DNA from: an uncultured Candidatus Saccharibacteria bacterium
GTDB lineage: Bacteria > Patescibacteriota > Minisyncoccia > Phycocordibacterales > JACOZG01
Assembly (NCBI GenBank): GCA_965230925.1
Contig: OZ246403.1
Coordinates: forward strand, 394,455 to 458,454
DNA length: 64,000 nt
Direction of reading: 5' to 3'
The notes below the pieces were generated by a model. That model saw only the letters and a list, made by a program, of their open reading frames with translations, did not search any database and was not told where the DNA came from. Position numbers and translations under genes: made by a program. Below are positions 7,968 through 63,841 of this stretch, one piece after another (the first letter of the stretch is position 1; each line of letters begins with the position of its first letter).

Positions 7968-8045
7968 AGGGTTTATTATAAAACAAATCTCCCCCAACCG
8001 TCGCCGGTTAGGGGAAAAGTGAACTATCTTGTTTGTTTGGATTGT

Positions 8046-16528: not shown

Positions 16529-16565
16529 AACTATTTTATTGTATACTATGAGACAAAAGGAGCCA

Positions 16566-24747: not shown

Positions 24748-24749
24748 AG

Positions 24750-24822
24750 TCCGCCCGGGGGGAATCGAACCCTCGACCGTCTGCTTAAAAGGCAGCTGCT
24801 CTACCAACTGAGCTACGGGCGG
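24750..24822 (-). tRNA. tRNA-Lys (anticodon TTT)
   Basis: Acceptor CCGCCCG/CGGGCGG, D-arm GCTC-AGTTGGTA-GAGC, anticodon loop CTTTTAA, T-loop GGTTCGATTCC. Confidence 0.8.
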
Positions 24823-42754: not shown

Positions 42755-42889
42755 ATGTCATTTACCTATAAACCAAAGCGGAAAAAGCGCAAGACCACCC
42801 ACGGATTTTTAGTCCGAAGTAAGAGTGTGGGTGGGCGAAAGGTGTTAAAACGTCGCCGACAGAAGGGTCGGAAGAAACTCTCGGTTTAA
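42755..42889 (+). CDS. rpmH: 50S ribosomal protein L34
   Basis: Manually translated: [44 protein letters not shown]. Too short for the ORF track; a near-DnaA box (GTGGATAAG) lies upstream. Confidence 0.9.
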
Positions 42890-42894
42890 GCTAT

Positions 42895-43245
42895 ATGCTC
42901 CCGGTTAAACATCGCCTGTCCCGACTGTCTGCCGGGCAGGTTTTAAGTTCTGGCCGCTCCTTCCACTCTCCTGTTTTAGGCCTAAAGTTAGCCAAAATTT
43001 CGGAAAATAGTGAAGAAAACAAGTTTCTTTTTGTGGTTCCGGCCAAAATAGCTAAAACAGCGGTACTTCGCCATCGTCTCAAGCGGCAATTGCGCTCAAT
43101 AGTGATAAAAACCCTGCCTAATTTACATAAAAACGGCCTCGGAATAATGATTTTTATGAAAAAAGATGGTGTAATTCTTCCTTTTGCCCGCCTAGAGGAA
43201 GAATTGTTAAATTTGTTCAATCAAGCTAAGCTAATAGGTAAGTAA
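42895..43245 (+). CDS. rnpA: Ribonuclease P protein component
   Basis: Basic ~115 aa protein following rpmH; KHRLSRLS...RLKRQLR pattern. Confidence 0.8.
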   Translation: MLPVKHRLSRLSAGQVLSSGRSFHSPVLGLKLAKISENSEENKFLFVVPAKIAKTAVLRHRLKRQLRSIVIKTLPNLHKNGLGIMIFMKKDGVILPFARLEEELLNLFNQAKLIGK

Positions 43246-43250
43246 TTCTC

Positions 43251-43997
43251 ATGAAGTATTTGTTTAATCAGGTGTTTTTCTTGCCCCTTTATAATGCTCT
43301 GGTGTTTTTGAGCGGCATCATGCCCGGACACAGCCTTGGTTTGGCGATTATTGTTCTTACTCTTTTAGTTAAGATTGTTTTATTCCCTCTTTATCATAAA
43401 ACAACAACCACTCAGGCTAAACTTAAACTTCTTGAGCCAGAATTAAAGAAAATTAAAGCCGAAACAACTGATAATCGGCAATTACAAGCTCAGAAAATCA
43501 TGGAATTATACCGAGTTCATGGTGTTAGTCCTTTTGCTGGGATTGGGGTAATGCTTATCCAGCTACCTATCCTTTGGGCTCTTTATAAGGTTTTCCGCGG
43601 TAGCTTCGAGTTTGACGGTGCTTTGGTGTATTCCTTTATTAATGCCCCCTCTTCTGTAAACCATTTTCTCTTTGGTATTTTGGATTTAACAGCAACAAGC
43701 TATATTCTCGCCCTTTTAGTGGGATTATCTCAGTATATTCAAGTTCGTCTCGCTCTGCCGCCGGTAAAACCCGATTTGGTTCCCAATAATAACCCCTCCT
43801 TCTCTGATAATTTGTCGAAAAGTATGGGAATGCAGATGCGTTATATCTTACCAGTAATGATGATTGTTATTTCAGCCGGTTTACCAGCCGCCCTCCCCCT
43901 TTATTGGTTAGTAGGAAACATTTTCCAAATTGGTCACGAGGTGTTGGTGAAGAGAAAAGCTTTCACTTTACTCCAAGGTGAGCGCCCACAGGCTTGA
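43251..43997 (+). CDS. yidC: Membrane protein insertase YidC, short (monoderm-type, no large periplasmic domain)
   Basis: 248 aa, 5 TM core; rpmH-rnpA-yidC synteny. Confidence 0.85.
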   Translation: MKYLFNQVFFLPLYNALVFLSGIMPGHSLGLAIIVLTLLVKIVLFPLYHKTTTTQAKLKLLEPELKKIKAETTDNRQLQAQKIMELYRVHGVSPFAGIGVMLIQLPILWALYKVFRGSFEFDGALVYSFINAPSSVNHFLFGILDLTATSYILALLVGLSQYIQVRLALPPVKPDLVPNNNPSFSDNLSKSMGMQMRYILPVMMIVISAGLPAALPLYWLVGNIFQIGHEVLVKRKAFTLLQGERPQA

Positions 43998-45167
43998 ATC
44001 TAAGCGATTTTTAAAGAAAACCAGGGTTTCGGTGGGATTTAGCATTAATTCCACGGCGTCGAGGGTTATACCACTCTCTAGACCGTAGCTTTTTTGCCAT
44101 ACCAGTCTTGTTTCGCCTGTCTCGGCGTTTATCCACCAGAGACTGTCATCAAAAGTTTTTTCCCCTCGATACCATTCATCAGGATAATTTCCGGCCGGTA
44201 AATTAGTGGGCACGGCACAATAGAGACTCAGTTTGTTTTTAGTCCAAACACATTTCTCAGCTATGGTTTCAAGGGAAATAAGTGAATTATCCTTTGTGAT
44301 TAAGTCAAAAAGGTACAGTCTCAACCCTTTTCCTACGCTCTCACTATAGACAATCTTTTTACCATCTGGGCTTACTAGAGTATTTAGACCTAAAATACCC
44401 CCTAAAACTTTTGTCCAAGCATTACTTTCGGGGTTTAAAAAGTAGAGTGATCCAGGGAGATTAGACGCTGGTTTAGTGAGGAAGCCAAGGGTTTTTTCTT
44501 CAGGCCAAGTGACCAGCCATTCGGTTAAAGGTGAAGAAACAACTTCTTTTTCTGTGCCACCGGCCCAGTTTCTTACTGTGCCTACGGTGTTACTCCCTGT
44601 TTTTTCTAGGGTAAAGAGTTTGTTTCCACTCGGTGAGGCAACAATTTGAGTAATAGAGTCATTGAGTGGTTGATTGTTGGCAAGGAGAAGATTGTGTCTG
44701 GTGTTTTCTTCCTCATAACTTACTGCTGTAAAGGTAGTACTTGCAGTGTGACCCCAAGCGACACTCATGACGCCGGGTAAGGTGGTGTTGGTAAACCGAG
44801 TGGTTTCTTCTGTCTCTAAATCACGGAAATAAATATGACCGGTCGATTTTTCCATATAAGCAAGCACGGTGCTACTGGCTTGAGAAAAGATACTAAAACC
44901 ACTAATAGGCGAATTAACCACTTTAACCAGGCGACCACCAAAACTTTGATTAATTACCTGATCAGTCGGTGTTTCTGTGCCTACATTGCCTTCGTCTGTT
45001 GTATCAATTGGCTTTGCACCACCTTCATCTATGGGAAAAAATTCATCCACTGTTTCAGTGGGGGTTGGTGTTTCCCCATTATCTCGCTCAAAGTAGAAAA
45101 AGAGGCCTAATAAAAAGCCAAGAGCGGCTATGACGAGAATAATAATGATGAGAATTTTTTGACTCAT
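43968..45167 (-). CDS. Membrane-anchored beta-propeller protein (TolB/PD40-like repeats); last gene of the T4SS-like operon
   Basis: N-terminal TM (ILIIIILVIAALGFLLGLFFYF), acidic linker, repeated SPDGKK-type blades. Confidence 0.45.
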   Translation of the reverse strand: MSQKILIIIILVIAALGFLLGLFFYFERDNGETPTPTETVDEFFPIDEGGAKPIDTTDEGNVGTETPTDQVINQSFGGRLVKVVNSPISGFSIFSQASSTVLAYMEKSTGHIYFRDLETEETTRFTNTTLPGVMSVAWGHTASTTFTAVSYEEENTRHNLLLANNQPLNDSITQIVASPSGNKLFTLEKTGSNTVGTVRNWAGGTEKEVVSSPLTEWLVTWPEEKTLGFLTKPASNLPGSLYFLNPESNAWTKVLGGILGLNTLVSPDGKKIVYSESVGKGLRLYLFDLITKDNSLISLETIAEKCVWTKNKLSLYCAVPTNLPAGNYPDEWYRGEKTFDDSLWWINAETGETRLVWQKSYGLESGITLDAVELMLNPTETLVFFKNRLDSSLWALTLE

Positions 45168-45583
45168 TGATCTTCTTGTTGATTTACTGGTTGATTTGAT
45201 TCGAGACTAAAGTTAACTCGCACTAACTCAGGATTAATTTGGCGCAAGAGAATATAAGCAGCTAGAGCGAGAAGAAGACCCCAGAGCGCTTGAGTAATTC
45301 GCTCTTTTGAGCCACCTTTTACCCCTGGTACGCCACTGGCCGCGTATTTTACTCCTTCCCAAATAATGATGAGGATTCCCAAAAGCCCAATAAATCCAAT
45401 GGCTTTAGGAAAAAGATCGGTTAGATATTGAGCTAAATTCCCCACTTTTTCCTGCCCGGTAATTCCCGGCTCAAGTAGACATACGCCATCATTGTCTGAT
45501 TTACAGCCAGTTTGAGCATGCACAAAAGTTAAAAGAGGAATACTGAAGGCAAGAATAAGGCTAAAAATAAGGAGTTTTTTCAT
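45164..45583 (-). CDS. VirB2/TrbC-like pilin candidate (signal peptide + two hydrophobic helices)
   Basis: MKKLLIFSLILAFSIPLLTFVHA signal, then helices AIGFIGLLGILIIIW and ALWGLLLALAAYILL; 139 aa; overlaps neighbouring genes by 4 nt. Confidence 0.45.
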   Translation of the reverse strand: MKKLLIFSLILAFSIPLLTFVHAQTGCKSDNDGVCLLEPGITGQEKVGNLAQYLTDLFPKAIGFIGLLGILIIIWEGVKYAASGVPGVKGGSKERITQALWGLLLALAAYILLRQINPELVRVNFSLESNQPVNQQEDQ

Positions 45584-46357
45584 TTAGAAATTAAAATTAC
45601 TCCGGCCATATGTAATATTAAATTTATTAACCACCTTCTGCAGTATTTTGTTGGAATTCTTGGTGAGCAAACTCACTGTCACCTCCCCTGTTTCTCCAGC
45701 TGGTGCAGCAAAGGTGATGACTCTGCCACCTTCAGAACTTCCACGCGCCGGTTTATTATTCACTTGCCAGTCGAAGCTCACATTACCGCGAGTAAAGTCG
45801 CCCAGAGAGACAAAATACGGCTCAGCGAGCAGCATCACCTCCTTCTCGGTAAGCGCGAGGCTACTGCCGAGTGCGGCGCCATAATTCGCACCAGAGAGTG
45901 GTGAGAGTGGGTAAATCACTGCTTTTGGAGTAATTACGGGAATAGTGAGGCTTTTAGTGATCTCAGCGCCATTTCCATTACTTACTTTAACTGTGATTGT
46001 ATTACCTCCTACTGTGGCAGCTTGATAGGTTAAAGTATTTTTGCCGATTCCTGAGGAACCTGGGAGATTAAAATTATCTTTTTTCCAAGTATAGGTAAGG
46101 TTGTTGGGATTCATTCCGGGAAAGTCAGCAAGGGCGACCACTCTCACCTCACTCTCGGAGCTCACCTGACTGTGACCACGGTAAAAAGTTGGGGTGTATG
46201 TTCTTGCTTCAAAGAAAAGGTCAACCGAAGACGGGGTTTGAGCGGCCGCAACCGCAGAAAGCATTCCCATCAAGAGAAGTGGAAGTGCTGTCACACCAAA
46301 TTTCATAGCCTTTAGTTTATCACACCTCTCCTGGAGAGAGTTGAGGAGAACTTTCAT
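45584..46357 (-). CDS. Secreted beta-rich (Ig-like?) protein in the T4SS-like operon
   Basis: Signal peptide; Thr/Ser/Gly/Asn-rich beta-strand pattern. Confidence 0.4.
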   Translation of the reverse strand: MKVLLNSLQERCDKLKAMKFGVTALPLLLMGMLSAVAAAQTPSSVDLFFEARTYTPTFYRGHSQVSSESEVRVVALADFPGMNPNNLTYTWKKDNFNLPGSSGIGKNTLTYQAATVGGNTITVKVSNGNGAEITKSLTIPVITPKAVIYPLSPLSGANYGAALGSSLALTEKEVMLLAEPYFVSLGDFTRGNVSFDWQVNNKPARGSSEGGRVITFAAPAGETGEVTVSLLTKNSNKILQKVVNKFNITYGRSNFNF

Positions 46358-46781
46358 TGGACCGCTCTTCTCGGCGACGGTAAGGGTATGCTTTCCAATG
46401 TTTATCCCAACCCTTTCCTAACTTTTTGGTGTTTTTGGATAATTCTTTAATTTTTACCAGGAGTTTTTTGATTAAACGGTTGATCCACCAATTGGCGAGA
46501 GTGTTCCACGGGAGCATGGATATAAAGGGAACCATCCCTAGGAGAGCAGCAAAAGAAGAAATCAAAGCAATTTTAAGCTGGATAATACCTATGGAAACAC
46601 CAGATTTGGCAACGGCTTTTAAAATAGGCATATATTTGAAGATAAAAACCCCAAGCCAAATAAGCCAATAGATGGCATTAGTGACAACGTTTACGAAAGG
46701 AATTAAGTCTAAAAGGTCAAAAATAAAAGTTATTACCGCCATGGTAATTTGAAATTGTAGTGAAAGGCCGAGTGTTTGCAT
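46320..46781 (-). CDS. Polytopic small membrane protein (4 TM) with basic C-terminal tail
   Basis: Hydrophobic helices; tail KKLGKGWDKHWKAYPYRRREER. Confidence 0.4.
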   Translation of the reverse strand: MQTLGLSLQFQITMAVITFIFDLLDLIPFVNVVTNAIYWLIWLGVFIFKYMPILKAVAKSGVSIGIIQLKIALISSFAALLGMVPFISMLPWNTLANWWINRLIKKLLVKIKELSKNTKKLGKGWDKHWKAYPYRRREERSNESSPQLSPGEV

Positions 46782-46786
46782 GCTAA

Positions 46787-48592
46787 TTACCCTGTGGTCT
46801 CAAGATCTTGCTTCGCTTGTTTAATGGCGAGAATTTGGGAAGGATCTGAGGTAATAATCTGGTCTTCGGTATAGGAGGCAATGATTTTAATTGCTACGTG
46901 TTTGAGGCCAGCGAAGAAGATGCCCTCCCCCACATTGCTCTCAAGAAGCAAATACTTCTCTTCATCGGTGAGTTGAAAGGTTTTTTGGACCAGATCAATT
47001 GAGGCCGGAGATTGTTTTAGAAGTAATTGAAGTGAGGAGTTGGTGATAATCGGTAAACCATATTCCGAACGTAAGAAATCCCCTACATCTTGGGTAATTG
47101 TGGCGACGCCGAGATAATACTTACGACCGCGTTTTACGAGAGAAAACAAGAATGAAGCCGTGTCCGGCGCCTTCATCATCCACCAAGCCTCATCGATGAC
47201 GAGTAAACGTTTTTTTAGATTACGACGAATAGAATTCCAGATATTGTGCATTACGATGTACATCGCAACTGGCTTGAGCTCATCTTCCATGTCGCGGACC
47301 GAGAAAACGACAAACTTTTTATTAATATCAACGTTTGTTGGCTGATTAATGAAACCAGCCCAAGTACCTTGAGTGTATTTGAGAAGCCGTTGGGCAAGCG
47401 ATGCCCCACCTTCCATGCCGGCGAGCACTAGTTCCAGATCAGAGAGTAGTGGCGCCGGTTTACTGCTGAAATCGGAGCCCGGAGTAATATCCTTCAGGGC
47501 ATAGGTTTCCGTAATGGCGGCATCAATAATCGCATCTTCCTCGGTAGTAAGACCACCGAGCATAATTCGGAATAGGCCTACTAAGTTGATGATATTAGAG
47601 CGCAAAACATCGGCTGGTGACTCATCTTCGCGAGGGAAAGGCAGGTCGAAGGGATTAATGTGGTGTTCGGAAGTGAGAGAAATGTTGAAATAGCGCCCCC
47701 CGACTGCCTCAGCCAGGAATTCATACTCGCGCTCTGGGTCAATCACAATCACATCGGTGTCGAACATGAGAGAGCGCAAGACTTCTAGCTTGGTGGCGTA
47801 ACTTTTACCTGAACCCGACTTGGCAAAGATCACCGAATTGTAGTTCTCGAGACTAAAACGATCGAAAAGGACCAACGAAGAGTTGTGGCGGTTAATGCCA
47901 TAGAGAATCCCTTTATTTGAGGTTAAGTCGAAAGAAACAAAGGGAAACAGGCTCGAGAGTGGCGAAGAATTAAGCTTGTAATTGATATTAAGTTGATCAT
48001 TGGCGATCGGTAACACGCTTTTGAAACCCTCTTCTTGTTGGAAAAGAGCTGGTTTGAGATACACCAACTTAGCGTCGAGAATTGATTTAATTTCTCCCTC
48101 GATCTTATCGAGCTCATCCTCCGATTCGCCGTAAATGGTGATATAGAGACCAACATCGAAGATTTTTTCTCGAGCTTGTTGGAGGGCATCGCGGAGATTC
48201 TCAATATCTTCATAGGCGGTGTCGAGAATGGGGTCACGAACAATACCCCGAGCTTCTTTGAGATTAATCTGACTTTGCACCTCAGCCACCTTTTTCTCTA
48301 GTTGCCGCAGAGCGGTAGAGGTATCAATGGGGTGAACCACAATCGAGACGTCGAAGACCTTGTCGAGGTTGATCACTGGTGAGAACCAATCCCCCGCTAA
48401 GACGCGTGGGTAGGAGATCACAAAGAAGGTGCGAGCCATCTTGTCGCCCAGATTTAAGAGCCTGGGCGTAATTTTAAGCGCTGAGGGCGCAATAATGTCT
48501 TTGAGCTCGAGTACACCCAACTGATAAATATCTTTTGGGAGAATGGGGGCGAGCCCTGGCGCTTCTTTCTTATTTCGATTAAAGAATGACAT
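46787..48592 (-). CDS. VirB4/TrbE/CagE-family T4SS ATPase (ATPase domain only, 601 aa)
   Basis: Walker A FAKSGSGKSYATK, IDPEREY, Walker B RLLVIDEAWWMM, ATITQD; true ATG at 48592, 1 nt after the TAA of the upstream ORF. Confidence 0.85.
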   Translation of the reverse strand: MSFFNRNKKEAPGLAPILPKDIYQLGVLELKDIIAPSALKITPRLLNLGDKMARTFFVISYPRVLAGDWFSPVINLDKVFDVSIVVHPIDTSTALRQLEKKVAEVQSQINLKEARGIVRDPILDTAYEDIENLRDALQQAREKIFDVGLYITIYGESEDELDKIEGEIKSILDAKLVYLKPALFQQEEGFKSVLPIANDQLNINYKLNSSPLSSLFPFVSFDLTSNKGILYGINRHNSSLVLFDRFSLENYNSVIFAKSGSGKSYATKLEVLRSLMFDTDVIVIDPEREYEFLAEAVGGRYFNISLTSEHHINPFDLPFPREDESPADVLRSNIINLVGLFRIMLGGLTTEEDAIIDAAITETYALKDITPGSDFSSKPAPLLSDLELVLAGMEGGASLAQRLLKYTQGTWAGFINQPTNVDINKKFVVFSVRDMEDELKPVAMYIVMHNIWNSIRRNLKKRLLVIDEAWWMMKAPDTASFLFSLVKRGRKYYLGVATITQDVGDFLRSEYGLPIITNSSLQLLLKQSPASIDLVQKTFQLTDEEKYLLLESNVGEGIFFAGLKHVAIKIIASYTEDQIITSDPSQILAIKQAKQDLETTG

Positions 48593-48593
48593 A

Positions 48594-49235
48594 TTAGGCG
48601 GCGGTTGGGATCTCTGCTTCCCCAGGGTTAAAGATTTTGAAGAATAATTCGACCAGTTCCTCAGTCCCTAGCGGGATAGCGCGCACGCCGAAGCGGCTCA
48701 AACCTTGAATCACCACCGCGGCGCGCTGTTCAATTTGGGAGCGTCGTTCCTCGAATTTCTCGGTGGCGAGGTCGGCCGCGCTCTTGTTTGGATTTTTACC
48801 TGGCCAGAGACCAGAGAGAATCCCACCTTTCTTTAGATTTACCATGGCGGCGTCATATGGCACACAAACGAAAAAGGTTTTGGCCATCACGTCAGTAGAA
48901 TTGGTGAAATTACGGATAAATTCAATGTATTCTCGGGTTTGAACCTTAATTAATTCATTTGTCTGCTCTTTTTGTCTAGTTTCTAAGGTGGCAAGATAGG
49001 GCTTAATATCAAGCCGGCGGGACTGGATAAAGAGTTGGACGTGGAAATCGAGAGAATTAAGGAAATTTTGGTACTGGAGAATGATCGCTTCCTTCTCGTC
49101 CTCCGATTTTAGGGCGAAGTTGAGCGAAGAAACAATGAGAACTAGTCGGAGACCGCCATTTTTGAGCACCACGACCCCGTCGCGGATCTCTTTAATGGGA
49201 ACGAACTCTTGCGTTGCTTGCGAGGTTTCAGCCAT
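48594..49235 (-). CDS. Cytoplasmic protein, inferred to be the separately encoded N-terminal domain of VirB4
   Basis: 213 aa with no TM. Stop TAA-t-ATG coupling to the VirB4 ATPase ORF; 213+601 aa approximates a full-length VirB4 (~800 aa). Confidence 0.4.
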   Translation of the reverse strand: MAETSQATQEFVPIKEIRDGVVVLKNGGLRLVLIVSSLNFALKSEDEKEAIILQYQNFLNSLDFHVQLFIQSRRLDIKPYLATLETRQKEQTNELIKVQTREYIEFIRNFTNSTDVMAKTFFVCVPYDAAMVNLKKGGILSGLWPGKNPNKSAADLATEKFEERRSQIEQRAAVVIQGLSRFGVRAIPLGTEELVELFFKIFNPGEAEIPTAA

Positions 49236-49253
49236 CGGCCTTTATTATAACGG

Positions 49254-49664
49254 CTATTGAATTTTCTCCCTAATATCCAGGCTCCAGGATAATTCTTTCA
49301 GCTTACTCTTTGATAATTTGGGAATGGCTATACCTGGGGTTTGTTCACTACCAATTTTAATAGTGTCCCCTTGGTCGATTTTTTTCTCTTTTTTCTTCCA
49401 CACATAGAGTTTATGCGACCAGAAGTATCGCAGAGCGGACTCGGTCATGTTGATAAAAGGTCGGTTGTTGATCTTATAGAAGGCCAAGAGAAGGCCAAAA
49501 ATCACAAGCCCGGCCATGATTGGCCAAGCGAGGAACTTGGGGAGATAAGTATAAGCAACGAAGGCGCCACCAAGCGAGCCAGCCACGTAAACGAATTGCT
49601 TGAAGGTTAAGGGGCCAAAAATCTTGTCTTCAATCTCGATAAATTGAGGAACTTGGAAATTCAC
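49254..49664 (-). CDS. VirB3/PrgI-like 2-TM protein
   Basis: 136 aa, TM hairpin (YVAGSLGGAFVAYTYL / WPIMAGLVIFGLLLAFY), immediately upstream of VirB4. Confidence 0.45.
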   Translation of the reverse strand: MNFQVPQFIEIEDKIFGPLTFKQFVYVAGSLGGAFVAYTYLPKFLAWPIMAGLVIFGLLLAFYKINNRPFINMTESALRYFWSHKLYVWKKKEKKIDQGDTIKIGSEQTPGIAIPKLSKSKLKELSWSLDIREKIQ

Positions 49665-49679
49665 CCTTCTATTGTAGCG

Positions 49680-50186
49680 CTATTTAGAAATTTCGCGATA
49701 GGGATCGGGGGTGGAAGAGGGAGGATTAGAAGGAGTTTGTTGCGGTTGATCAAATTGCTTCTCGAGATCCACCTCTTCTCGCGGCACGCGGAACAATTTC
49801 GCCATTTTTTCCTCGAAAATGCTGCGACTGTCAGGGCTTGCACTCACTGCTGGACTTACTGCCGGCCTTTCCCCCGCATGAATTTTCTTCAGTGATTCTT
49901 GGATTTTTAGAAAGATTCCTTGGTTGACATCATTAGTGATAGCGTTAAGTTGGTCTGGTTGCAACGGTAATTCTTTGGCCAGGTTTTTTGTGAAGTCAGA
50001 TAATGGATTGATTCCGATTAGAACCAAAGCCGTTTGATCAGCTAGTACCCCTATTTCATCTAGGTGAAGATCGTACTTTAGGCCGATATCACCAATTGTC
50101 CCGTCAAGATCAAGGTCCCAGATGGCTGCCTGAATATCTTCGGGCAACTTAAGAAATTTTTCTAGTAATTGTTCGTTGTTGTTCAT
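49680..50186 (-). CDS. Acidic cytoplasmic hypothetical protein (T4SS-like operon)
   Basis: 168 aa, no TM, Pro/Ser-rich C-terminus. Confidence 0.35.
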   Translation of the reverse strand: MNNNEQLLEKFLKLPEDIQAAIWDLDLDGTIGDIGLKYDLHLDEIGVLADQTALVLIGINPLSDFTKNLAKELPLQPDQLNAITNDVNQGIFLKIQESLKKIHAGERPAVSPAVSASPDSRSIFEEKMAKLFRVPREEVDLEKQFDQPQQTPSNPPSSTPDPYREISK

Positions 50187-50191
50187 ATATT

Positions 50192-52504
50192 TTATTCCCC
50201 TTCGGGTTTCTTTTTTTCTTTTTCCCCTCCTTTATCTTCCCCCTCCTTTTTCTTTCCCTGTTCATCTATTTTTGCTTCCAAGGACTCAGTCTTGTCTAAT
50301 TGCTCCGCGGCTAAAATTAGGGCTTCTAAACGATCAGCTTCTAATTGGTTCCCAGCCCTTTCCGCGTCTTCTTTTTGTTTAGTCCAGGTTTTAATTTCAT
50401 TTTTTCTCTTATCTTTTTTCTCTTGAGTTTCTCTTGCCTCCCTAAGTTTCTTTTTCATCGGCTCTGGCATTTCCTCTTGTATACCTTCTACTACCTTACT
50501 TAATTTTTGATACTTCTTACCGGCTTTTTGCTGTCGAGCTTGAATTTCTTCAGGGGTGCCTGGGGCTTTTTCTATCTGCTTATCAAAGTTCCTTATTTGC
50601 CGTTTTATACCACGAACTTTTTGGACTTTTGCTATATTTTCTGGGAGCGCCTGAGCCACCGAGCTCATGCTTGGATAAGTGACGTCGTACCAATTCAAAT
50701 CCTCTCTATTTTTAGAAATAAAGTCTTCTTTTTCCTGTTCGATTTTTTCCTTTGATTTAACGTCCTTAGCTTTTTCTTCATAAGATTTTTTAAGTCCAGA
50801 CTCTAGTTTTAGTTTGTCTTCCACCTTCATTTTCTCATAAGCTCTCTGCTGAGCAATCTTACCACCAAAGATATTTCTCTTTCGGCCAAGAGCGGCTAGA
50901 TATTTGGCAACCAACTCAGGATCATCTTTGATCTCATCAGGAATTTTGGCGAGTTCATCAATCTTCTTGTCAAAACTCTTTTCTCCACCAAACTTTTCTT
51001 TAGAAATTGTGGAAGCAAATTTAGTTAGAGAGCCACCAATGATGGTCCGGTTGGCAATCTGATTCTTAGCCCAATCAGAAGTGGCAATTCTGCGACCTAA
51101 CCGCCCGACGGTGTTCGCACCAATAGTTCCCACTGCGCGTTGTCGCCATTTCTTACCGAGATCACTAGCATATTTCGCCCCATGAATACCAAATTGTACA
51201 GCAGCAATGAGGGAACCAACCATCAGGCCAATCACAATAATAAAGTTGATAAGCATGGCGCCTATTCCTGCAATACCAGCGGCTTGAGAATCAGCGGCGA
51301 TGCTCTGAATCGCACCTTGAGACATCACTTTAGTAGAAAGGAAGACGAAGAGGAGATAAATTGGAGCGAAGAATGAATATTTAATAAGCAAATTCCACCA
51401 CTTCGAGAAGTGGCCACTGAGCTTCGGCGTGGTGTAGGCGAGGAATGCCAAGGGCGAGAGAATAACCATAAAGATGAGAACAATCATGCGGATGAGGAGG
51501 AGTAAGCCCGCGGCGAGGAAGACGAAGGCCGTCACGAGCATCAGACTCACTGCACCAATGGCTTGAGCCAGTGTTTTACCCACGCCAGTGGCGGTGCCAG
51601 AGGGAGTGTCGAAGGCCCGTTGGAGATTGAGATGATTCATGAAGAGGCCGGTTACTCCCCCAATTTTGCCATCAGCACCACCAACAAGGGCTGAGTCATA
51701 GGTTTGCCCACTGCGATTCACTGACTGGAAGAATTGATACGATGCGATATTAGAGACATCGATAATGGCTCGGGCGAAGAAGGCGCTAAAGTTGATGAGA
51801 AAAGCGATAACAATGACATTCGCGATTAGTTTGTTTTTATTCCCAATTTCAAGATCAAGAATGAAGCCGATTGCCACATAGAGCAAAATGAAAATGAAGA
51901 AAATATTTGCGAAGTCGCGGAGAGCGCCCCAGGCGGCAGTAATTCCTGGTGAATCAAGGAGGGAGGCGAAGTTGTTAACGGTATAGTTGAGCGAATATTC
52001 GAAAACGGCAGCAGATAAATAGACTAAGAATCCAGCAATGTAGATAAGGAAGTTCCCTGCTCCCCCAACCATCTTTTCTGCGAAATAATTGATGTTCTTC
52101 CACGTTGCGCTCCATGATTCCTTGAGGAGACAACCTAAAGAGAGAGACGATAAAACTCCGTCACAGCCATCTTCGGGTTCATTGCCGCCACCTTTTCCTT
52201 GTAAGTCTTTAACTTGCTCACGAAGGGCGTTCATCTCATTCGTTAGCCTTATATATTCAGGAGAGCCTGGAGCGTGGTTGCTTCGTTGTCGACCCAACTC
52301 CCTTGTTTGCTCAGCTAATTGCCCAGCTTGGGTGTTAGCGGCATTGTTAGGGACAGTGTTGTCCTCAGGATACAGGGGTGGGGTTTCGTCCGGCCACCAG
52401 GTACTGAGTAAGTCATCAATGTATCCTGCATTGGTGTGGTGAACAGGCGCGACCAAAAAAGTTATGACAGACAGTAAGGTAAGAATGAAGAAAAACTTTT
52501 TCAT
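50192..52504 (-). CDS. VirB6/TrbL-like polytopic membrane protein with long K/E-rich coiled-coil C-terminal tail
   Basis: Signal peptide, ~120-aa ectodomain, at least 6 TM helices, then ~300 aa of highly charged KE-rich sequence. Confidence 0.55.
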   Translation of the reverse strand: MKKFFFILTLLSVITFLVAPVHHTNAGYIDDLLSTWWPDETPPLYPEDNTVPNNAANTQAGQLAEQTRELGRQRSNHAPGSPEYIRLTNEMNALREQVKDLQGKGGGNEPEDGCDGVLSSLSLGCLLKESWSATWKNINYFAEKMVGGAGNFLIYIAGFLVYLSAAVFEYSLNYTVNNFASLLDSPGITAAWGALRDFANIFFIFILLYVAIGFILDLEIGNKNKLIANVIVIAFLINFSAFFARAIIDVSNIASYQFFQSVNRSGQTYDSALVGGADGKIGGVTGLFMNHLNLQRAFDTPSGTATGVGKTLAQAIGAVSLMLVTAFVFLAAGLLLLIRMIVLIFMVILSPLAFLAYTTPKLSGHFSKWWNLLIKYSFFAPIYLLFVFLSTKVMSQGAIQSIAADSQAAGIAGIGAMLINFIIVIGLMVGSLIAAVQFGIHGAKYASDLGKKWRQRAVGTIGANTVGRLGRRIATSDWAKNQIANRTIIGGSLTKFASTISKEKFGGEKSFDKKIDELAKIPDEIKDDPELVAKYLAALGRKRNIFGGKIAQQRAYEKMKVEDKLKLESGLKKSYEEKAKDVKSKEKIEQEKEDFISKNREDLNWYDVTYPSMSSVAQALPENIAKVQKVRGIKRQIRNFDKQIEKAPGTPEEIQARQQKAGKKYQKLSKVVEGIQEEMPEPMKKKLREARETQEKKDKRKNEIKTWTKQKEDAERAGNQLEADRLEALILAAEQLDKTESLEAKIDEQGKKKEGEDKGGEKEKKKPEGE

Positions 52505-55500
52505 TAATTTCTTGTGATCGTCACTTCTTTGATCGTTTCTTGATCATTATCGCCGGTGCACTTGAGGATATAGGTCAGCTTGGGAGTGATCGAGAGGTAG
52601 ATAGCTCCCTCGCTTGTCCCGTAGGTGAAGGTGTAGCGCTTGAGCATTTGGGCGAGCGGTCCGGTGCCATTTTTTTCTAATTCGATCTTATTTTTTAAGA
52701 GTTCAATCACCTCGACCGGAGTTCTGTTGGTCGCAGACATCACCTCCAGAGTAATGTTTTGGCCAATTGTTAGGCGATAGATATCGAGAGCGAGCGCTCC
52801 TTGAGTTGGCTTGTATTCCACGCGATCGGCGAGGCGATTAGGAGTGAGGGTGTCAGATAATGTTTCTGTCGTGGCCACTCCAGCGCGAGTTCTGGTTAGT
52901 TCTGCCCGCATTTCTACCGGGTGAGAGATGGTGCGGAAGCCGTCATTATTTAACTTCTCGCCCGCTTTGGCCACGGTGGTGTCGGCTGTGCTTGAGATCC
53001 AATCATTGCCTGCCTCACATCGGTCGGCATTGGTGGTGTCCCAGATAATCCGGCTATCATCCTTTTGGCCGCCATTTACTTGGGCTAATGAGGGTGTTTC
53101 TGCTCTCATGTTTACGAAGACTGGGAGAATATCACCAAGGCCAATGCTGGTACCGAGCGAGCTTGTTCTCGTGCTGGGATCCTCATAATTATTTCTCCTG
53201 AGAAAGCCGCTATCCTTGTTTGGCCAACCAGCGTTCGGGCAAGGACCAGGACCAGGACAGGGGTCGGAACCATTATAAATACTGGGAGCCTTCTCAGCTT
53301 CAAAATAACCAGGAGCATCATCCAATCTGTCGGCGACATGCTCGAGTTCTCCTTTGGCTACGTCAAGCTTTGGATTCTGAACTGACACATCGACGGGAGT
53401 AAAAAAGATTTTCTTAGTTGCCTCCTCCGCTATGCCCGGCGCGAGCGTGGTGTCGTATCCACGACAAAGCCAGGTAGTTTTGTCTTCAAGCTCAACCTCG
53501 ACCCTGTTTTCTTGAGGGCATTCGTAACGGCCGAGAATGCCATTTCCGGCAGCAAGGTCAGCTTCTGCCCGCGCCAGGGCCTGTGCTCGGAGACTATTAA
53601 CTGCGTCTCTTGTTTTGAAGTAAACAGTAATAGGATTGATGAGAATAAGTTTCATCCACGATGTCCACCCACCACCCTCTTCAAAGCCGCCCGGGGAAGT
53701 AAATTGATCATATTGAGTTTTTGGTAAACCATCAGAAGCGATTTCCCCGGCAACAGTTTGCATTTCCTCAATCTCCAATTTTTCTCGAATATCTGGAACT
53801 AAGTGGTAAGTTTCTGGATCATCTTCTGCTAGAGTTTTTAGATCTTGCATGGATACTTTGAACTTTTCCTGGTCTCTTTGCTGAACAAATTGGTCAGGGT
53901 TTCTTGGCATGATAGATTGTCCATTTCCCTCACCCTCTACACCGAGCATTCCCGGAGACATACCAACGCCGGTATTAAGATCCTTTTTGATTTTTTCTAA
54001 GAAGGCGTGGAGACCACCGAGAGTATTTTTCTCAGCATTTGGTGTTGTGATTAATCTATTTTCCTCGTCCATTAATTGGATTCGCCTCATGGTCTTGAGG
54101 AAAGTACACGTTTGTATCTGAAGAATAGTCAGACGCTCGTTCAAGTCACGAGATTGTTCCTCGGTATTCAAAATTTTGTTTGTAGTCTTCGCATTTCCTT
54201 TGGATGTTGCTGCTATGCTAAAGATGCTACCTAATTCCGGTCCTACCTCAGCCACCGGGAACGCTGCGGCGCCACCACCCACGGTGCCGAAGCCGATGGC
54301 GGCCATTCCTTCCGCCACGAGTTGCTCCACAATTGGTGCCAAGATTGGACCAGCGAGTGGAATACCCTCTACCAATGATCCCGCGCCTGCGGCGACGCTG
54401 GCACCAATATTATTTTTCAGCCCCTGCATAATCTTGGATGCTTCAAGATTGTTGCTAGTGAGTTGTCCCGGACCCACTTGTTTTTCCACGGCCCCATTAG
54501 CGGCTCGTTCAACTCCTCCGTTTTGCAAATCCTGTTGGGCTCCAGTGCCTACTTCGCTCATGGCGCTTTCCATTGGTGCGCCGTCAGGGAAGGATGCTTG
54601 ATAATCCTCAAGACTCATTGAACCTTGACCAGGAATGGTGTTTTGGTCAGCGGTTAAGCGCATGCCATTGGCTTGAGCGATATCGTAATCAGAGGCTCGC
54701 ATCTGATTTGGCTGTAGTTGGCCCGCGGCGTCCAACTGATCGTACTGGGCATTTTCCAGTACCTCTAGTGTGGGCGGTGGTGGGTACACCGCGCTCCAGA
54801 GTCCATTGCCAAGGTTGCTAATACCGTCTGCCGCCACGCCACCAATCTCAAATGCTGTTCCGGTGATTCCATGCGCTAAGGGGTAGAAGGTGGCACCGAG
54901 CGTGGCATCAATAGTGTCGGCCAGAGTATTACCCAAGGTATCAATGGTGCTGCTAATCGGGTAAGCAATTGTAGCTACAGCAATATTGAGTTGTTGGTCG
55001 ATGGCATCGGTGATTGGATCAAGAAGAGCTTCATCGAAGGTGTCGATGGCATTCTCAAGCGCTTCAGTAGGAACAGCAATAGAATCAATAACTTTGTCGA
55101 TAGAGTTTTCGATCGAGTTATTGATCGGCTTCTCGATGGCACCCATCATGGCATCGGTCAGGCGGTTGATGTGTTTCGGATCAGTCATTGATTGCTCGAG
55201 CTCGAAGGAGAGACCGTCGATCATGTCCTCAAGAAGTTGGTCGGGGTCAAGATTCGCAAGCCAAAGGAGGAATTCCTTAGAGGCATCAAGTTGGGCAACG
55301 AGATTCTCAATAATTCTCTCGACATCTTTAAGGGTTGAAGGTACGGAAATGGCTCCAAAGAAAATTCCTAATAGGTCACCAAGAGGACCTAAACCCGCAA
55401 CAGGAGAAAAAGATTTTTTCAAGTTTTCTATGGCGGCCATAATGGCTATTTTTGTTCCTTCAATAGTGCCGCGCACATCCTCCACTTGATCCCGGACCAT

Positions 55501-56274
55501 CTCAGGGATTTGTTGAATCATGGTGTTGAGCTGGGCGCGGTAATAGGTCTCGATGGTTGGCCGAGCGGTTTTTCCAATCTCTAACTTAAAGGTGTCTTGG
55601 AGGGTGCGACGCAAGCCACCACTAATACCGCGAGAGGTGGCATTGCCTACGAAATCATCATTCAAAACATTTGGTAAAGTTTCCCGAACTGATGAGTCAA
55701 TTAACTTTTTAAATTGCCCCTCATTTTGTCGGTAGTATTCAGCGGTGAAGCCAGCGCGTCGATCAGCCTCCAGATTCTTGGCCAGAGTTTTAGGAAATTC
55801 TTCTCCCCAGCGGGTTTTGAAGCCCTCTTGGAATTCGTATTTAAGGTTTTCTTGGATATTAGTAGATGCCACACCCGCTGAGTCCCCGAGGGTATTAATA
55901 GTGTTGGGTAAGACTTCCAGGCCAAGCTTCTCGTTGACCCGGTTTTTGATCGGCTTGGTAATACCATCGGCGATGGCTCGGCCAGCGGATTTGTTTTTAC
56001 TCTTTTTTGATTCCGAAACACATTCCTCATAGTCACTCTTGCGAATTTTAGCTAAGCGATCGGCGCTTTGTTGGCTGGTGGCTTGTCCGGGTGGGGTGAG
56101 GCCAGAATACTTAGCATTGTTTGCGGCTGGGTTTGAGCCAGGAGGAGGCAGGGCTACGCTTGGCCCTCCGGCTGGAGCGGGAGTATTTTGGGCGCTTACC
56201 ATTGGCGTGACAATAATTCCCCAAATAATGAGGAAAATAATGACGCGCTTGGTGAAGTTTAATAATGTTTTCAT
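52504..56274 (-). CDS. Giant (1256 aa) secreted/surface protein of the T4SS-like operon
   Basis: Signal peptide (IIFLIIWGIIVTPMVSA), Pro/Ala/Gly linker, D/E-rich alpha-helical repeats, Gly/Ala-rich segment, Cys-containing C-terminal domain (CPGPGPCPNAGW). ATGA overlaps with both flanking genes. Confidence 0.5.
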   Translation of the reverse strand: MKTLLNFTKRVIIFLIIWGIIVTPMVSAQNTPAPAGGPSVALPPPGSNPAANNAKYSGLTPPGQATSQQSADRLAKIRKSDYEECVSESKKSKNKSAGRAIADGITKPIKNRVNEKLGLEVLPNTINTLGDSAGVASTNIQENLKYEFQEGFKTRWGEEFPKTLAKNLEADRRAGFTAEYYRQNEGQFKKLIDSSVRETLPNVLNDDFVGNATSRGISGGLRRTLQDTFKLEIGKTARPTIETYYRAQLNTMIQQIPEMVRDQVEDVRGTIEGTKIAIMAAIENLKKSFSPVAGLGPLGDLLGIFFGAISVPSTLKDVERIIENLVAQLDASKEFLLWLANLDPDQLLEDMIDGLSFELEQSMTDPKHINRLTDAMMGAIEKPINNSIENSIDKVIDSIAVPTEALENAIDTFDEALLDPITDAIDQQLNIAVATIAYPISSTIDTLGNTLADTIDATLGATFYPLAHGITGTAFEIGGVAADGISNLGNGLWSAVYPPPPTLEVLENAQYDQLDAAGQLQPNQMRASDYDIAQANGMRLTADQNTIPGQGSMSLEDYQASFPDGAPMESAMSEVGTGAQQDLQNGGVERAANGAVEKQVGPGQLTSNNLEASKIMQGLKNNIGASVAAGAGSLVEGIPLAGPILAPIVEQLVAEGMAAIGFGTVGGGAAAFPVAEVGPELGSIFSIAATSKGNAKTTNKILNTEEQSRDLNERLTILQIQTCTFLKTMRRIQLMDEENRLITTPNAEKNTLGGLHAFLEKIKKDLNTGVGMSPGMLGVEGEGNGQSIMPRNPDQFVQQRDQEKFKVSMQDLKTLAEDDPETYHLVPDIREKLEIEEMQTVAGEIASDGLPKTQYDQFTSPGGFEEGGGWTSWMKLILINPITVYFKTRDAVNSLRAQALARAEADLAAGNGILGRYECPQENRVEVELEDKTTWLCRGYDTTLAPGIAEEATKKIFFTPVDVSVQNPKLDVAKGELEHVADRLDDAPGYFEAEKAPSIYNGSDPCPGPGPCPNAGWPNKDSGFLRRNNYEDPSTRTSSLGTSIGLGDILPVFVNMRAETPSLAQVNGGQKDDSRIIWDTTNADRCEAGNDWISSTADTTVAKAGEKLNNDGFRTISHPVEMRAELTRTRAGVATTETLSDTLTPNRLADRVEYKPTQGALALDIYRLTIGQNITLEVMSATNRTPVEVIELLKNKIELEKNGTGPLAQMLKRYTFTYGTSEGAIYLSITPKLTYILKCTGDNDQETIKEVTITRN

Positions 56275-57119
56275 ACCCCTAAAGTAATTTTTACCTTATC
56301 ACCCTCGGCAAAGGTCAGATTATGTCCCGCGAAAAAGAAATTTAGCGTTCCTAGGGCGGTGATAAGTTGTCGGAGATGACTCGATTGCATATTGGCGGCA
56401 CCCATAGCGAGAGTGGGCTCAGTTTCAAGCTCGGCCATGAGGGTGCTGTCGGACAGGAGGCGGCTTAAGCTGTTTACCAGGTTTAATTGAATCGCCCCGG
56501 CTGTTTCTGGGGTGGGTAAAGCGCGGAGTTGGTTAATGGCTGTCTGATAGCGCGTAATAGCCGGGTTAATTTCTTCTACTAAGTCGGTATTTCCTGTTTC
56601 TACCGCTTCTAGGGTAAGTGCGGCTTCATAGCCAATCCCTGGTTCAATGAAGGCCGACATAATCTTAGCCATGTTTTTGCCATATTCCATTAGGAAAGCT
56701 TCGCTGTTTTCCCCTACCAAGTTAAGATCCTCCAGGCTGTATCTTCTGGCTATCCCCGAGGTTAAGTCATCAATAGGCAGAAGCGGTGTATCCTTCTTGG
56801 TAGCCGCGTTTACCACAATGCGTAAGGCGTGATCTTCCGGATTAATCACCGGCTCTTGATTATCTGGTAACCGATCGCCATCAGAGTCGGCGTTTAGAGG
56901 GTCAGTCCCCTTTAGGGTTTCTTGCCAATCGGGAATTTTGTCTCCGTCTTGGTCGAGCACCTTCTTCTTGGTAGGCAGAGAGGTTGCGATATTGCTAACT
57001 GCGGCGCGAAGGCCAACTTCTTCTCCGGGCGCCGGTAGCGTCCGTCCGCCCAAGTACCACAGTCCACCCAAACTGCCACCAACCAGAATTACTAAGACAA
57101 TCAATAATTTTTTAAACAC
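56271..57119 (-). CDS. Secreted protein with thrombospondin-type-3-like Ca-binding repeats; first gene of the operon
   Basis: Signal/TM LLIVLVILVGGSLGGLWYL; DQDGDKIPDWQE and DSDGDRLPDNQE DxDxDG-type motifs. Confidence 0.45.
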   Translation of the reverse strand: MFKKLLIVLVILVGGSLGGLWYLGGRTLPAPGEEVGLRAAVSNIATSLPTKKKVLDQDGDKIPDWQETLKGTDPLNADSDGDRLPDNQEPVINPEDHALRIVVNAATKKDTPLLPIDDLTSGIARRYSLEDLNLVGENSEAFLMEYGKNMAKIMSAFIEPGIGYEAALTLEAVETGNTDLVEEINPAITRYQTAINQLRALPTPETAGAIQLNLVNSLSRLLSDSTLMAELETEPTLAMGAANMQSSHLRQLITALGTLNFFFAGHNLTFAEGDKVKITLGV

Positions 57120-57276
57120 AGAAGTAGCTAAATTATATTACATTTGTCGAGGCCAAGACAGGCAAAACTGTTGAATACTTGGCGAAATCAGCTCAAACTT
57201 GACAAATATAACCAATAATGCTAAGTTATTGGCAGTTTACGAATTCAGACAGACCTCTTTTTAAGGGAGAAACGAT

Positions 57277-57615
57277 ATGAAACTTGTTCAGGTTCTTTTC
57301 ATTTCGGTGATGGTGGCAACTACGGCTGGTTGTAATTCAGCCAAGTTCAAGCGAACAGAAACCCAGATGTTGGCAGATGGTGGTAAGATCGAGACTGTCT
57401 CTGAGGGGTGGGCAGATTCAAAAGACATTCTGTCCTCGCGCCAAGAAAGTTTGGATGTAACTCCAAACGGGGTAAAGTGGAGAAAGAGTTCCACCGCGGC
57501 CCAATCACCGAGCCTTGTTCTTTGCCTTCGTTCTGGTTGCGGGCTGCCTCAGTGGTCCCACTCAAGAAGCAAATGGGAAAGACACCAGAGTCACGTGTAC
57601 AGGTACGGTTATTGA
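57277..57615 (+). CDS. Candidate small lipoprotein
   Basis: MKLVQVLFISVMVATTAGCNS lipobox; candidate TTGACA-17-TAAGTT promoter at 57199-57227. It overlaps an alternative-frame ORF (57515..57835) that also has a lipobox-like start. Confidence 0.35.
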   Translation: MKLVQVLFISVMVATTAGCNSAKFKRTETQMLADGGKIETVSEGWADSKDILSSRQESLDVTPNGVKWRKSSTAAQSPSLVLCLRSGCGLPQWSHSRSKWERHQSHVYRYGY

Positions 57616-57686
57616 AGGTTTCTTGTGTCGCGGCAACAAGTGGGTCGTTCTGATTAAGTTCAGAGCGGCCCTTTCCTTTTCTAAAT

Positions 57687-58103
57687 TTAAAATTTTGCCT
57701 TGGCAGTTTCTCCTACTTTCAAATTATTTTTGTCCGAGAAACCGGCGTTTACTTCGAGGACATATTTTATTGGCGAGGGTGGATAGAAAAGTTTTGGATA
57801 ACTTTCTGGGGCGAGATTTTTTTCGATCCCAATAATTTTCCAGTTTTCGTCGAGCCAGATAATGTCGATTGAGAAACGCATGTCTTTCATCCAGAAGCCG
57901 GGCGTGGTGGGCGATGGGAAAATAAACAAGAGACCGGTGTCTTGTGGCAATGAAGCGCGATCAGAAAGTCCCTGTGTTCGTTCGGTGTTGGTGTCAGCGA
58001 TTTCTATTTGAATAATTTTCCCGCCGATTTCTAGTTGTGGTGTGTGAGAAACAGGGGCAATGAGACCGAGCGCAATAAGAATACTTAAAAAGAATTGCTT
58101 CAT
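57687..58103 (-). CDS. DUF192 (COG1430) secreted protein
   Basis: Signal peptide; ...GLLFIF.......FWMKDM.F.IDIIWLD motif typical of DUF192. Confidence 0.6.
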   Translation of the reverse strand: MKQFFLSILIALGLIAPVSHTPQLEIGGKIIQIEIADTNTERTQGLSDRASLPQDTGLLFIFPSPTTPGFWMKDMRFSIDIIWLDENWKIIGIEKNLAPESYPKLFYPPSPIKYVLEVNAGFSDKNNLKVGETAKAKF

Positions 58104-63515: not shown

Positions 63516-63841
63516 TATTCTAAGTGTTCTTTACAGGTTTTGGCCGCAGGATTGGCTTCTAAGCGATCAGTCTCGATTTCTTTTCCGCAGATAGCGCAGG
63601 TTCCAAATTTTCCTTCTTCCAAGCGCCCGAGGGCGGCGGTTACTTCATTTAAACGGGTTTTTAAGGTTAAGGTTTCGGCGGCGCGATCTTCCTGGTCTTC
63701 CAGACGATCAGCGGTTTCATCACGGAACTCAGATTCACCGCCTTCCCCTTCCGGGTGAGGCGCTAATTCTTTGAGTTCGTTCAGTAAATCTTGTTTTTCT
63801 TTTTCAAGCGCTTGGTGTAACTGTTCAAAACGTTGTTCCAT
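63515..63841 (-). CDS. DksA/TraR-family C4-type zinc-finger protein
   Basis: Coiled-coil N-terminus and C-terminal CAICGKEI...CKEH zinc finger. Confidence 0.7.
   Translation of the reverse strand: MEQRFEQLHQALEKEKQDLLNELKELAPHPEGEGGESEFRDETADRLEDQEDRAAETLTLKTRLNEVTAALGRLEEGKFGTCAICGKEIETDRLEANPAAKTCKEHLE

Follow-up and report, generated by a model that had tools for sequence, protein, structure and literature searches.

The 64,000-nucleotide stretch of contig OZ246403.1 analyzed here (the window), from an uncultured Candidatus Saccharibacteria bacterium, carries a tightly packed operon of eleven minus-strand open reading frames (ORFs) that runs from position 57119 down to position 43968, next to the genes of the replication origin. 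We are confident that this gene cluster is the known type IV secretion system (T4SS) of the Patescibacteria and not a mobile element, and a chromosomal T4SS of the Patescibacteria clade is very likely the best explanation of the locus as a whole. The headline points were already published between 2023 and 2025 (PMC10633639, PMC12102498), and the operon is an ordinary Paceibacteria copy. In the ultra-small Patescibacteria, a survey (Quiñonero-Coronel 2025, Microb Genom, PMC12102498) detected VirB4 in 2,417 of 3,035 genomes (~80%) and placed nearly all of these proteins in a monophyletic clade nested in the mating-pair-formation type MPF-FATA; TrsD is the commonest T4SS component, PrgI/VirB3, VirB6 and VirB2-like pilins occur near virB4, the cluster adjoins the replication origin in many classes, and the commonest virB4 neighbors in Paceibacteria and Microgenomatia are dnaA, dnaN, rnpA, rpmH, and ksgA. 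The operon described here shares with that Paceibacteria layout an MPF-FATA VirB4, TrsD, PrgI, a VirB2-like pilin and, probably, a VirB6-like protein, as well as a chromosomal site by dnaA/dnaN/rnpA/rpmH/ksgA without a nearby relaxase or type IV coupling protein (T4CP). Nothing essential differs, the other neighbor genes having been left unannotated in the survey (PMC12102498); this genome does have one pilin gene instead of an array and no VirB1-like hydrolase inside the operon. An earlier note on this DNA had likened the locus to the minimal T4SS-like clusters of Candidate Phyla Radiation (CPR) bacteria, and the match to the Paceibacteria layout bears out that likeness.

The eleven same-strand genes that the earlier note had listed were confirmed to the exact coordinate, and all eleven ORFs are intact. 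In the order of transcription, and all on the minus strand, they encode g282 (operon gene 1, 56271–57119, 282 residues), the giant secreted protein g1256 (52504–56274, 1256 residues), a VirB6/TrbL-like polytopic protein (50192–52504, 770 residues), the soluble protein g168 (49680–50186, 168 residues), a hydrophobic hairpin that is the PrgI/VirB3 equivalent (49254–49664, 136 residues), a TrsD-like homologue of the VirB4 N-domain (48594–49235, 213 residues), the VirB4-type T4SS ATPase (46787–48592, 601 residues), the membrane protein g153 with three transmembrane (TM) segments (46320–46781, 153 residues), the immunoglobulin (Ig)-like secreted protein g257 (45584–46357, 257 residues), a VirB2-like T4SS pilin (45164–45583, 139 residues) and, as the last gene product, the anchored beta-propeller g399 (43968–45167, 399 residues). 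Nearly all junctions are tight or translationally coupled, as had been claimed. Four-nucleotide ATGA overlaps occur at two of them (g282/g1256 and pilin/g399), g1256 and the VirB6-like gene overlap by 1 nt in TAATG, the TrsD-like and VirB4 genes meet at TAAtATG, and of the remaining close junctions, one has a 0-nt gap while the others leave 5, 5, 15, and 18 nt between the genes. The sole loose junction is g153/g257, with a 38-nt overlap counted from the first ATG; started at its second Met (46306), g257 follows g153 after a 13-nt gap, and this second Met is probably the true start because the signal peptide of the orthologues begins there. At the other border the operon end overlaps the 3′ end of the convergent yidC by 30 bp and lies 1260 bp from the dnaA start, which agrees with the convergence and the distance of less than 1.3 kb noted before. 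The arrangement is not due to chance, because the gene order recurs in Paceibacteria loci of other species. A search of the remaining 64-kb window for paralogues of the operon's families found none.

To place the operon among its relatives, we scanned one genome per GTDB species, which yielded 563 confirmed VirB4 relatives, and compared in detail the best 80 of these 563 loci (L001–L080), which were chosen by VirB4 similarity and have VirB4 proteins of 73 to 89% identity. Profile matches make the 601-residue protein a VirB4-type ATPase of monoderm MPF-FATA kind. It matches NCBIfam NF045971 (conju_CD1110) with E = 1.2e-109 and, at 367.7 bits, passes the curated cutoff (325), over profile positions 185 to 733 of 752, and additionally matches Pfam P-loop_TraG and AAA_10; in the PDB, its top relative is the VirB4-like protein 4AG5 (1.9e-40), with the diderm R388 TrwK at just 2e-8. 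The motifs from which the protein had been called a VirB4 are both present: GSGKSY (Walker A) starts from residue 260, and LLVIDEAW (Walker B) spans residues 463–470. The TrsD-like 213-residue protein matches NF045975 (VirB4_plasma) over positions 100 to 233 (E = 5.9e-10), NF045971 over positions 2 to 102 (E = 8e-7) and NF041427 (TrsD, E = 1e-4). In light of these matches to a TrsD model and to the N terminus of VirB4, the "split VirB4" that had been considered a noncanonical layout is, on its sequence, the known TrsD plus VirB4 arrangement. Each of the two proteins has its own ORF in 75 of 75 related loci, and a frameshifted pseudogene was rejected on that ground. The hairpin protein described earlier as VirB3-like belongs with PrgI, passing Pfam PF12666 at E = 1.3e-10 and 42.1 bits (gathering score 27), with orthologues in 75 of the 80 loci; its gene stands upstream of the TrsD-like gene, however, and not directly upstream of the VirB4 gene as had been stated.

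The remaining two core components are recognized less directly. The VirB6-like protein has a signal-like N terminus, seven further hydrophobic or TM segments and a K/E-rich C-terminal tail of 300 residues (43% K/E/R/D) that is predicted to be cytoplasmic. Topology and tail are thus as the earlier note described them for a VirB6/TrbL-like protein, but the Pfam TrbL score in this genome (E = 5e-4, 20.3 bits) falls under the gathering score of 25.9. TrbL is reached at E ≤ 0.01 in 7 of 35 orthologues from the VirB6 slot (best 6e-5) and is the only family that recurs among them; orthologues occur in 65 loci, and a PDB profile search with the protein returned only Ca-repeat and coiled-coil noise. 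Architecture and position fit the VirB6-like assignment, which draws partly on the orthologues. The pilin has the signal peptide and two hydrophobic helices expected from its description as VirB2/TrbC-like. It matches the NCBIfam Mbov_0395 pilin-like family (E = 1.4e-3) and, under the gathering score of 26.6, Pfam T4SS_pilin (E = 9.4e-4, 19.7 bits); orthologues from the same slot exceed that gathering score (39.8 bits in L013; 31.9 bits, together with a TrbC match, in L063). The family is present in 72 loci, and the gene is single copy in the window. In many relatives, the pilin-slot ORF is 200 to 575 residues long (e.g., L013:13882–15303 and L063:3479–5203), although starts were set mechanically in the relatives and some of these lengths are possibly overestimated. 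These longer ORFs combine a VirB2-like domain with a long extension, which in L063 carries an NlpC/P60 hydrolase domain; the 139-residue pilin of the window is the minimal version.

The synteny comparison that the earlier note had proposed reveals one shared gene order across related Paceibacteria (Parcubacteria) metagenome-assembled genomes (MAGs). From the housekeeping side this order reads uvrD–ksgA–(DUF192)–g282 slot–g1256 slot–VirB6-like–g168 slot–PrgI–TrsD–VirB4–small TM protein–Ig protein–pilin–propeller, followed by the convergent yidC and then rnpA, dnaA, and dnaN, with the eleven operon slots constant. In all 55 loci that reach far enough, dnaA lies <9 kb from virB4, and ksgA is found in 46 of the 55. 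The best 80 of the 563 relatives are all MAGs labeled Patescibacteria, Paceibacterota, Parcubacteria or by a named parcubacterial candidate phylum, some of them bearing an automatic "Saccharibacteria" label, and these nearest neighbors strongly suggest that the VirB4 sequence falls within the Patescibacteria clade. Relatives with a DnaA of only 50 to 67% identity have the operon at the same chromosomal position and in the same order. The median identities to the window proteins are 78% for VirB4, 57% for both TrsD and DnaA, 50% for PrgI, 47% for KsgA, 42% for DnaN, 40% for YidC, 37% for the pilin, 32% for g168, 30% for g399, 29% for g257, 28% for the VirB6-like protein and 24% for g282. The gradient is steep, from 78% in the cytoplasmic motor VirB4 to 24 to 37%, or no alignment at all, in the surface proteins; by this measure, VirB4 is clearly more constrained than DnaA of the same genomes, and the parts predicted to be extracellular evolve fastest. 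The operon tolerates small insertions, as seen in close relatives: an extra small gene lies between the g168 slot and PrgI in L002 (8507–8869), L005 (8466–8843) and L006 (8464–8832), and another follows VirB4 in L006 (11833–12306). We take the former to resemble the "four-helix-bundle/23S rRNA intervening-sequence" protein family and the latter to be presumably NYN-domain-like.

The genomic site itself was described previously as lying beside oriC, and this is well supported, with the exact position of the origin putative. The operon sits between ksgA–uvrD on one side and yidC–rnpA–rpmH/dnaA–dnaN on the other. The genes dnaN (40004–41110, −), dnaA (41317–42708, −), rpmH (42755–42889, +), rnpA (42895–43245, +), and yidC (43251–43997, +), all assigned with Pfam and rpmH with its translation in addition, are the classical origin gene set and form the context of the machine rather than a part of it. 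The cumulative G–C minimum falls at 44429, where the 2-kb GC skew switches sign. One-mismatch DnaA boxes are not significantly enriched over the whole window (18 versus 11.8 expected), and it is suggestive that six of the 18 cluster within 41.3 to 44.2 kb, near dnaA. With an origin at ~42.7 to 44.4 kb, the operon and DUF192–ksgA–uvrD (43968–60807) are transcribed toward the origin, head-on to the replication fork, and every related locus shows the same orientation relative to dnaA. Such an orientation fits awkwardly with the published suggestion that proximity to the origin serves high expression through gene dosage.

The absence of mobility functions bears on a further reading, namely, that the operon belongs to an integrative and conjugative element (ICE), or to the decaying remnant of one, with its relaxase, T4CP and oriT beyond the window. 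The best curated family for VirB4, NF045971, is indeed the conjugal-transfer ATPase of clostridial ICEs, and the ancestry of the Patescibacteria system is conjugative (PMC12102498). Firmicutes MPF-FATA systems (pCF10 Prg/Pcf, CTn2 CD1110-type, and pGO1 Trs) share with this operon the VirB4 family, PrgI, a TrsD-like protein and, probably, a VirB6-like protein, and both lack an outer-membrane core complex. Those systems, in contrast, are borne on plasmids or ICEs and have no VirB2 pilin. Their apparatus includes a T4CP and a relaxase, a VirB1-like hydrolase, and both VirB8-like proteins and surface adhesins; none of these was found here, where the operon does have a pilin and a fixed chromosomal site. 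When every sizeable ORF of the 64-kb window was scanned against Pfam, none proved to be a relaxase, a VirD4/TraG-type coupling protein, a VirB11-sized ATPase or an integrase, in agreement with the earlier note, and no T4CP-like P-loop ORF occurs near virB4 in the 80 related loci; the statement that the system is without a coupling protein holds for the window and for the virB4 neighborhoods of the relatives. The PF00437 ATPase at 31908–33635 was considered as a VirB11 and rejected, being a 575-residue PilB/GspE-type protein with an MshEN domain. Monoderm MPF-FATA systems are not known to have VirB11, and by analogy with them, its absence would be expected and uninformative.

The borders of the operon also look unlike those of a mobile element. 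As previously noted, no tRNA gene flanks the operon, the nearest lying 19 kb away (24749–24822), and searches for att-like direct or inverted repeats at the flanks gave only short, imperfect, chance-like matches; no integrase is present, and the flanking genes are housekeeping genes of the origin region. The fixed position and order in relatives with diverged DnaA, the eleven intact ORFs and the very strong constraint on VirB4 likewise argue against an ICE or its remnant, as does the occurrence of relaxases in only 103 of the 3,035 Patescibacteria genomes (PMC12102498). We consider this reading highly improbable, and conjugation as the function is essentially excluded; the earlier view of the locus as a conserved core apparatus rather than a mobile element is upheld. 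Just past uvrD, 3.8 kb from the operon start, is a gene for a LysM plus peptidase M23 hydrolase (60889–61956, +). This peptidase, the hydrolase nearest to the operon, might take the place of the VirB1-type hydrolase that the operon lacks; M23 and LysM domains were noted in VirB1-like proteins in the 2025 survey (PMC12102498).

The combination of components present and missing had also been called the hallmark of ComB-type DNA uptake. The comparison is a loose one. It holds insofar as ComB of Helicobacter pylori is a T4SS-derived machine without VirD4, VirB11 or relaxase. ComB, however, is a diderm MPF-T system with ComB7–10 (VirB7–10). Homologues of ComB7–10 are undetectable here, and VirB4 is nearer the monoderm type, as the PDB values for 4AG5 and TrwK indicate. 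The profile searches suggested by the earlier note place VirB4 and PrgI above their cutoffs and give no VirB8, VirB9 or VirB10 family match in any of the eleven operon proteins; with VirB4 at 118.9 bits against TIGR00929 (VirB4_CagE, cutoff 643), membership in ComB was rejected. Like the present system, the archaeal Ced system has a VirB4/HerA-like ATPase in a single-membrane cell; Ced uses it for import, with type IV pili assisting. Membership in Ced was rejected as well: VirB4 scores 35 bits (E = 6e-9) against the CedB model NF041017, whose cutoff is 700, and 12.9 bits against CedD, and no CedA-like protein was identified.

These results make it less likely that the machine is a ComB and bear less on import as a function. 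That the system is a ComB/Ced-like nucleic acid import machine, bringing host nucleic acids to a cell unable to make nucleotides, is in our view unlikely. A cluster without coupling protein or relaxase, the weak and partial CedB similarity of VirB4, and a comM/yifB gene 5 kb away would all suit it, and a 2026 preprint on a cultivated member of the phylum describes host-penetrating tubular structures, possibly T4SS pili, together with host-RNA uptake (10.64898/2026.06.21.733656). The defining features of ComB and Ced are nevertheless lacking, in that no VirB7–10 homologue was found, the CedB score is far under its cutoff and VirB4 is MPF-FATA-like rather than MPF-T. Saccharibacteria, insofar as the work in PMC10633639 is summarized in PMC12857230, become competent by means of type IV pili and ComEC, and deletion of comEC is viable, whereas the T4SS is essential; DNA uptake through ComEC therefore cannot explain the essentiality. 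Genes for type IV pili are also found in this window.

That essentiality comes from Southlakia epibionticum, in which transposon sequencing (Tn-seq) showed the T4SS genes SEML1_0006–0019, including the pilins, to be essential for epibiotic growth (Wang 2023, Cell, PMC10633639). The strain ML1 system resembles the present one in being a Gram-positive-like T4SS with pilins and without recognizable coupling and relaxase proteins (PMC10633639), and the low SEML1_0006–0019 tags suggest that it lies near the start of the genome record. It differs in belonging to the class Saccharimonadia, in having six divergent pilins in an array and in the essential peptidase and lysozyme genes beside virB4. A 2025 review regards the Patescibacteria systems as the first T4SSs essential to their own bearer and proposes a pilus conduit (PMC12857230). 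The T4SS is probably vital to the parasitic lifestyle of these bacteria, essentiality being known from S. epibionticum of the Saccharimonadia and not from Paceibacteria.

Because DNA-transfer proteins are missing, Wang 2023 (PMC10633639) favored protein export or an alternative role, and the operon could accordingly be a translocator of protein effectors, whose substrates would arrive through a distant coupling protein or by a Sec-dependent two-step route like that of Bordetella Ptl. T4CP-less effector systems exist, among them Ptl and the Brucella VirB system (PMC12857230), VirD4-like/T4CP homologues lie distant from virB4 in most Patescibacteria genomes (PMC12102498), and the variable giant protein g1256, with its Sec signal, could be a substrate. 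Neither an effector nor a T4CP was identified here, the t4cp homologue of S. epibionticum is nonessential while its T4SS genes are essential (PMC12102498), and g1256 occupies a fixed slot and has a conserved core, features more in keeping with a part of the machine than with cargo. We hold an effector translocator to be doubtful.

The accessory proteins are the least familiar part of the operon. g1256 has a signal peptide at residues 11 to 29, in keeping with its description as a giant secreted protein, and its gene lies directly upstream of the VirB6-like gene; no Pfam or NCBIfam family matches it. The slot is variable, being filled in the relatives by signal-peptide proteins of 320 to 1350 residues, in which 0 to 900 residues of lineage-specific decoration accompany a core that is common to at least 38 loci. 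In the window, this core comprises residues 701 to 1010 (53245–54174, −) and has invariant Cys residues and the signature GGW..W / NNP.G / G.G.L..REC / TP. A homologue search with the core alignment as query returned 8000 candidates, none significant, and homologues were then sought by exhaustive single-sequence search; the core has no relative by sequence or by fold in these searches. g282 has an N-terminal membrane anchor (residues 5–23) and a TSP3-type Ca-binding motif; its conserved domain at the C terminus (residues ~96–282) is folded as a four-helix bundle in a good-confidence predicted model. The TSP3-type motif is thus there as the earlier note had it, but the assignment scores under the curated threshold in this genome and draws partly on the orthologues. 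Structure prediction, likewise proposed in that note, was based on models built from nine sequences for g282 and 15 for the g1256 core. The VirB8 fold is NTF2-like; a role of g282 as an analogue of VirB8 or VirB5 is unsupported, the predicted domain being a generic four-helix bundle. PDB profile searches of g1256 and g282 gave only Ca-repeat or coiled-coil noise, and an NCBIfam scan of the small family members gave no match.

Of the smaller accessory proteins, g168 has no TM segment; its N-terminal region is helical and conserved, and its tail looks disordered. It matches no Pfam or NCBIfam family, and homologues occupy the same position in 69 related loci. g153 contains three TM segments, the first of which holds an invariant Asp, and ends in a basic tail; its homologues were not detectable by tblastn or phmmer; in most loci, its slot holds an ORF of 100 to 300 residues with two to four TM segments, and the alignment keeps an FD / LP.WT pattern. 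g257 consists of two Ig-like (PKD/Big-like) domains, with weak PKD_6 and Big_9 matches, and its profile finds only Ig-like decoration proteins in the PDB (Hoc, E = 2.8e-4); orthologues exist in 76 of the 80 loci, with three Ig domains in most relatives and two in this clade. Finally, g399 fits the TM-anchored beta-propeller described before, with an N-terminal TM anchor, a low-complexity linker and a propeller domain with two conserved Cys residues; in the PDB, its profile, built from 36 orthologues, reaches E = 4e-5 for designed beta-propellers and E = 0.003 for the TolB propeller, weak TolB matches appear in NCBIfam, and at least 65 loci have an orthologue.

How such a system might work can be sketched from the roles of VirB4, VirB3, VirB6, and VirB2 in other T4SSs, and on this analogy, a pilus-based mechanism of host interaction has somewhat better than even prospects. 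TrsD/VirB4 hexamers would dock via PrgI (VirB3) on a platform formed by the VirB6-like protein, perhaps together with g153, and would pull the VirB2-like pilin out of the membrane and polymerize it into a pilus or a tube that crosses the cell envelope. The Ig-like g257, the propeller g399, the Ca-binding four-helix-bundle protein g282, and the variable g1256 would be the envelope-spanning or extracellular parts that contact the host. The organelle would serve an episymbiotic lifestyle, in host contact and in the exchange or uptake of host macromolecules, and not conjugation. More tentatively, we suggest that this is a complete eleven-part organelle in which g282, g1256, g168, g153, g257, and g399 are new T4SS components and the g1256 slot is a candidate for host recognition or the pilus tip, functionally VirB5-like; if true, the rapid divergence of g1256 would track host range.

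Several points weigh against reading the operon as a Patescibacteria T4SS of this kind. The VirB6 and pilin assignments stay under curated thresholds in this genome, VirB8-like and VirB1-like components were not found in the operon, and the ~716-kb genome may carry a gene for a coupling protein at another site. The absolute VirB4 identities are biased upward because the loci were picked by VirB4, while the within-genome comparison with DnaA is unbiased. Membership in the clade was judged from nearest neighbors, the 80 best relatives, and not from a VirB4 tree. For the Paceibacteria T4SS, including the system of this organism, the pilus is a prediction from the genes.

Between the operon and DUF192, the upstream intergenic region (57120–57686) holds the presumed operon promoter, a small divergent ORF and a hairpin. 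A TATAAT-like hexamer lies 14 nt ahead of the GTG start in this region; a promoter consensus scan found 12 promoter-like sites versus 18.5 in shuffles, and the promoter is only presumed. The divergent ORF (57277–57615, +, 112 residues) has a lipoprotein-like N terminus and no family match, and it is annotated as a gene in just one of three identical public contigs. A strong terminator-like hairpin with a 12-bp stem (57642–57671) parts the operon from DUF192–ksgA–uvrD. Further out, at 61953–63841 (−), lie genes for a ComM/YifB-type Mg-chelatase-like ATPase (520 residues) and, after it, a DksA/TraR-type C4 zinc-finger protein (108 residues). The type IV pilus genes comprise PilM (10455–11543), followed by small unannotated ORFs at 9910–10458 and 9351–9935 that are possibly PilN/O, and the PilB/GspE-type ATPase mentioned above, which adjoins ruvB. 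A YebC/TACO1-family ORF (34878–35889, 177 residues) matches only the first third of the second Pfam domain; it looks truncated because of this partial domain and its overlap by a complete ruvC. At 6024–8645 (−), a 657-residue subtilase stands beside a 199-residue protein with a PEP-CTERM sorting motif, which is unusual for a monoderm CPR genome, and a 414-residue ORF at 15485–16729 (−) has no Pfam match. The other window content includes housekeeping and similar genes, among them polA, ruvABC, a murein ligase, PBP1A, tyrS, tsaE, NUDIX proteins, a sensor kinase, and a subtilase.

The published picture is unchanged by this locus. The window adds a clean Paceibacteria example, whose eleven-gene layout does not vary among related species. 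What novelty is left concerns the accessory families that lack annotation, mainly the g1256-slot protein, and amounts to a lead rather than a finding; these families without known relatives, above all the g1256 core, are targets for structural and genetic work. A conserved motor combined with near-unrecognizable surface parts is what marks an essential machine whose host interface evolves fast, and the Patescibacteria T4SS is a leading candidate for how episymbionts with reduced genomes tap their hosts.

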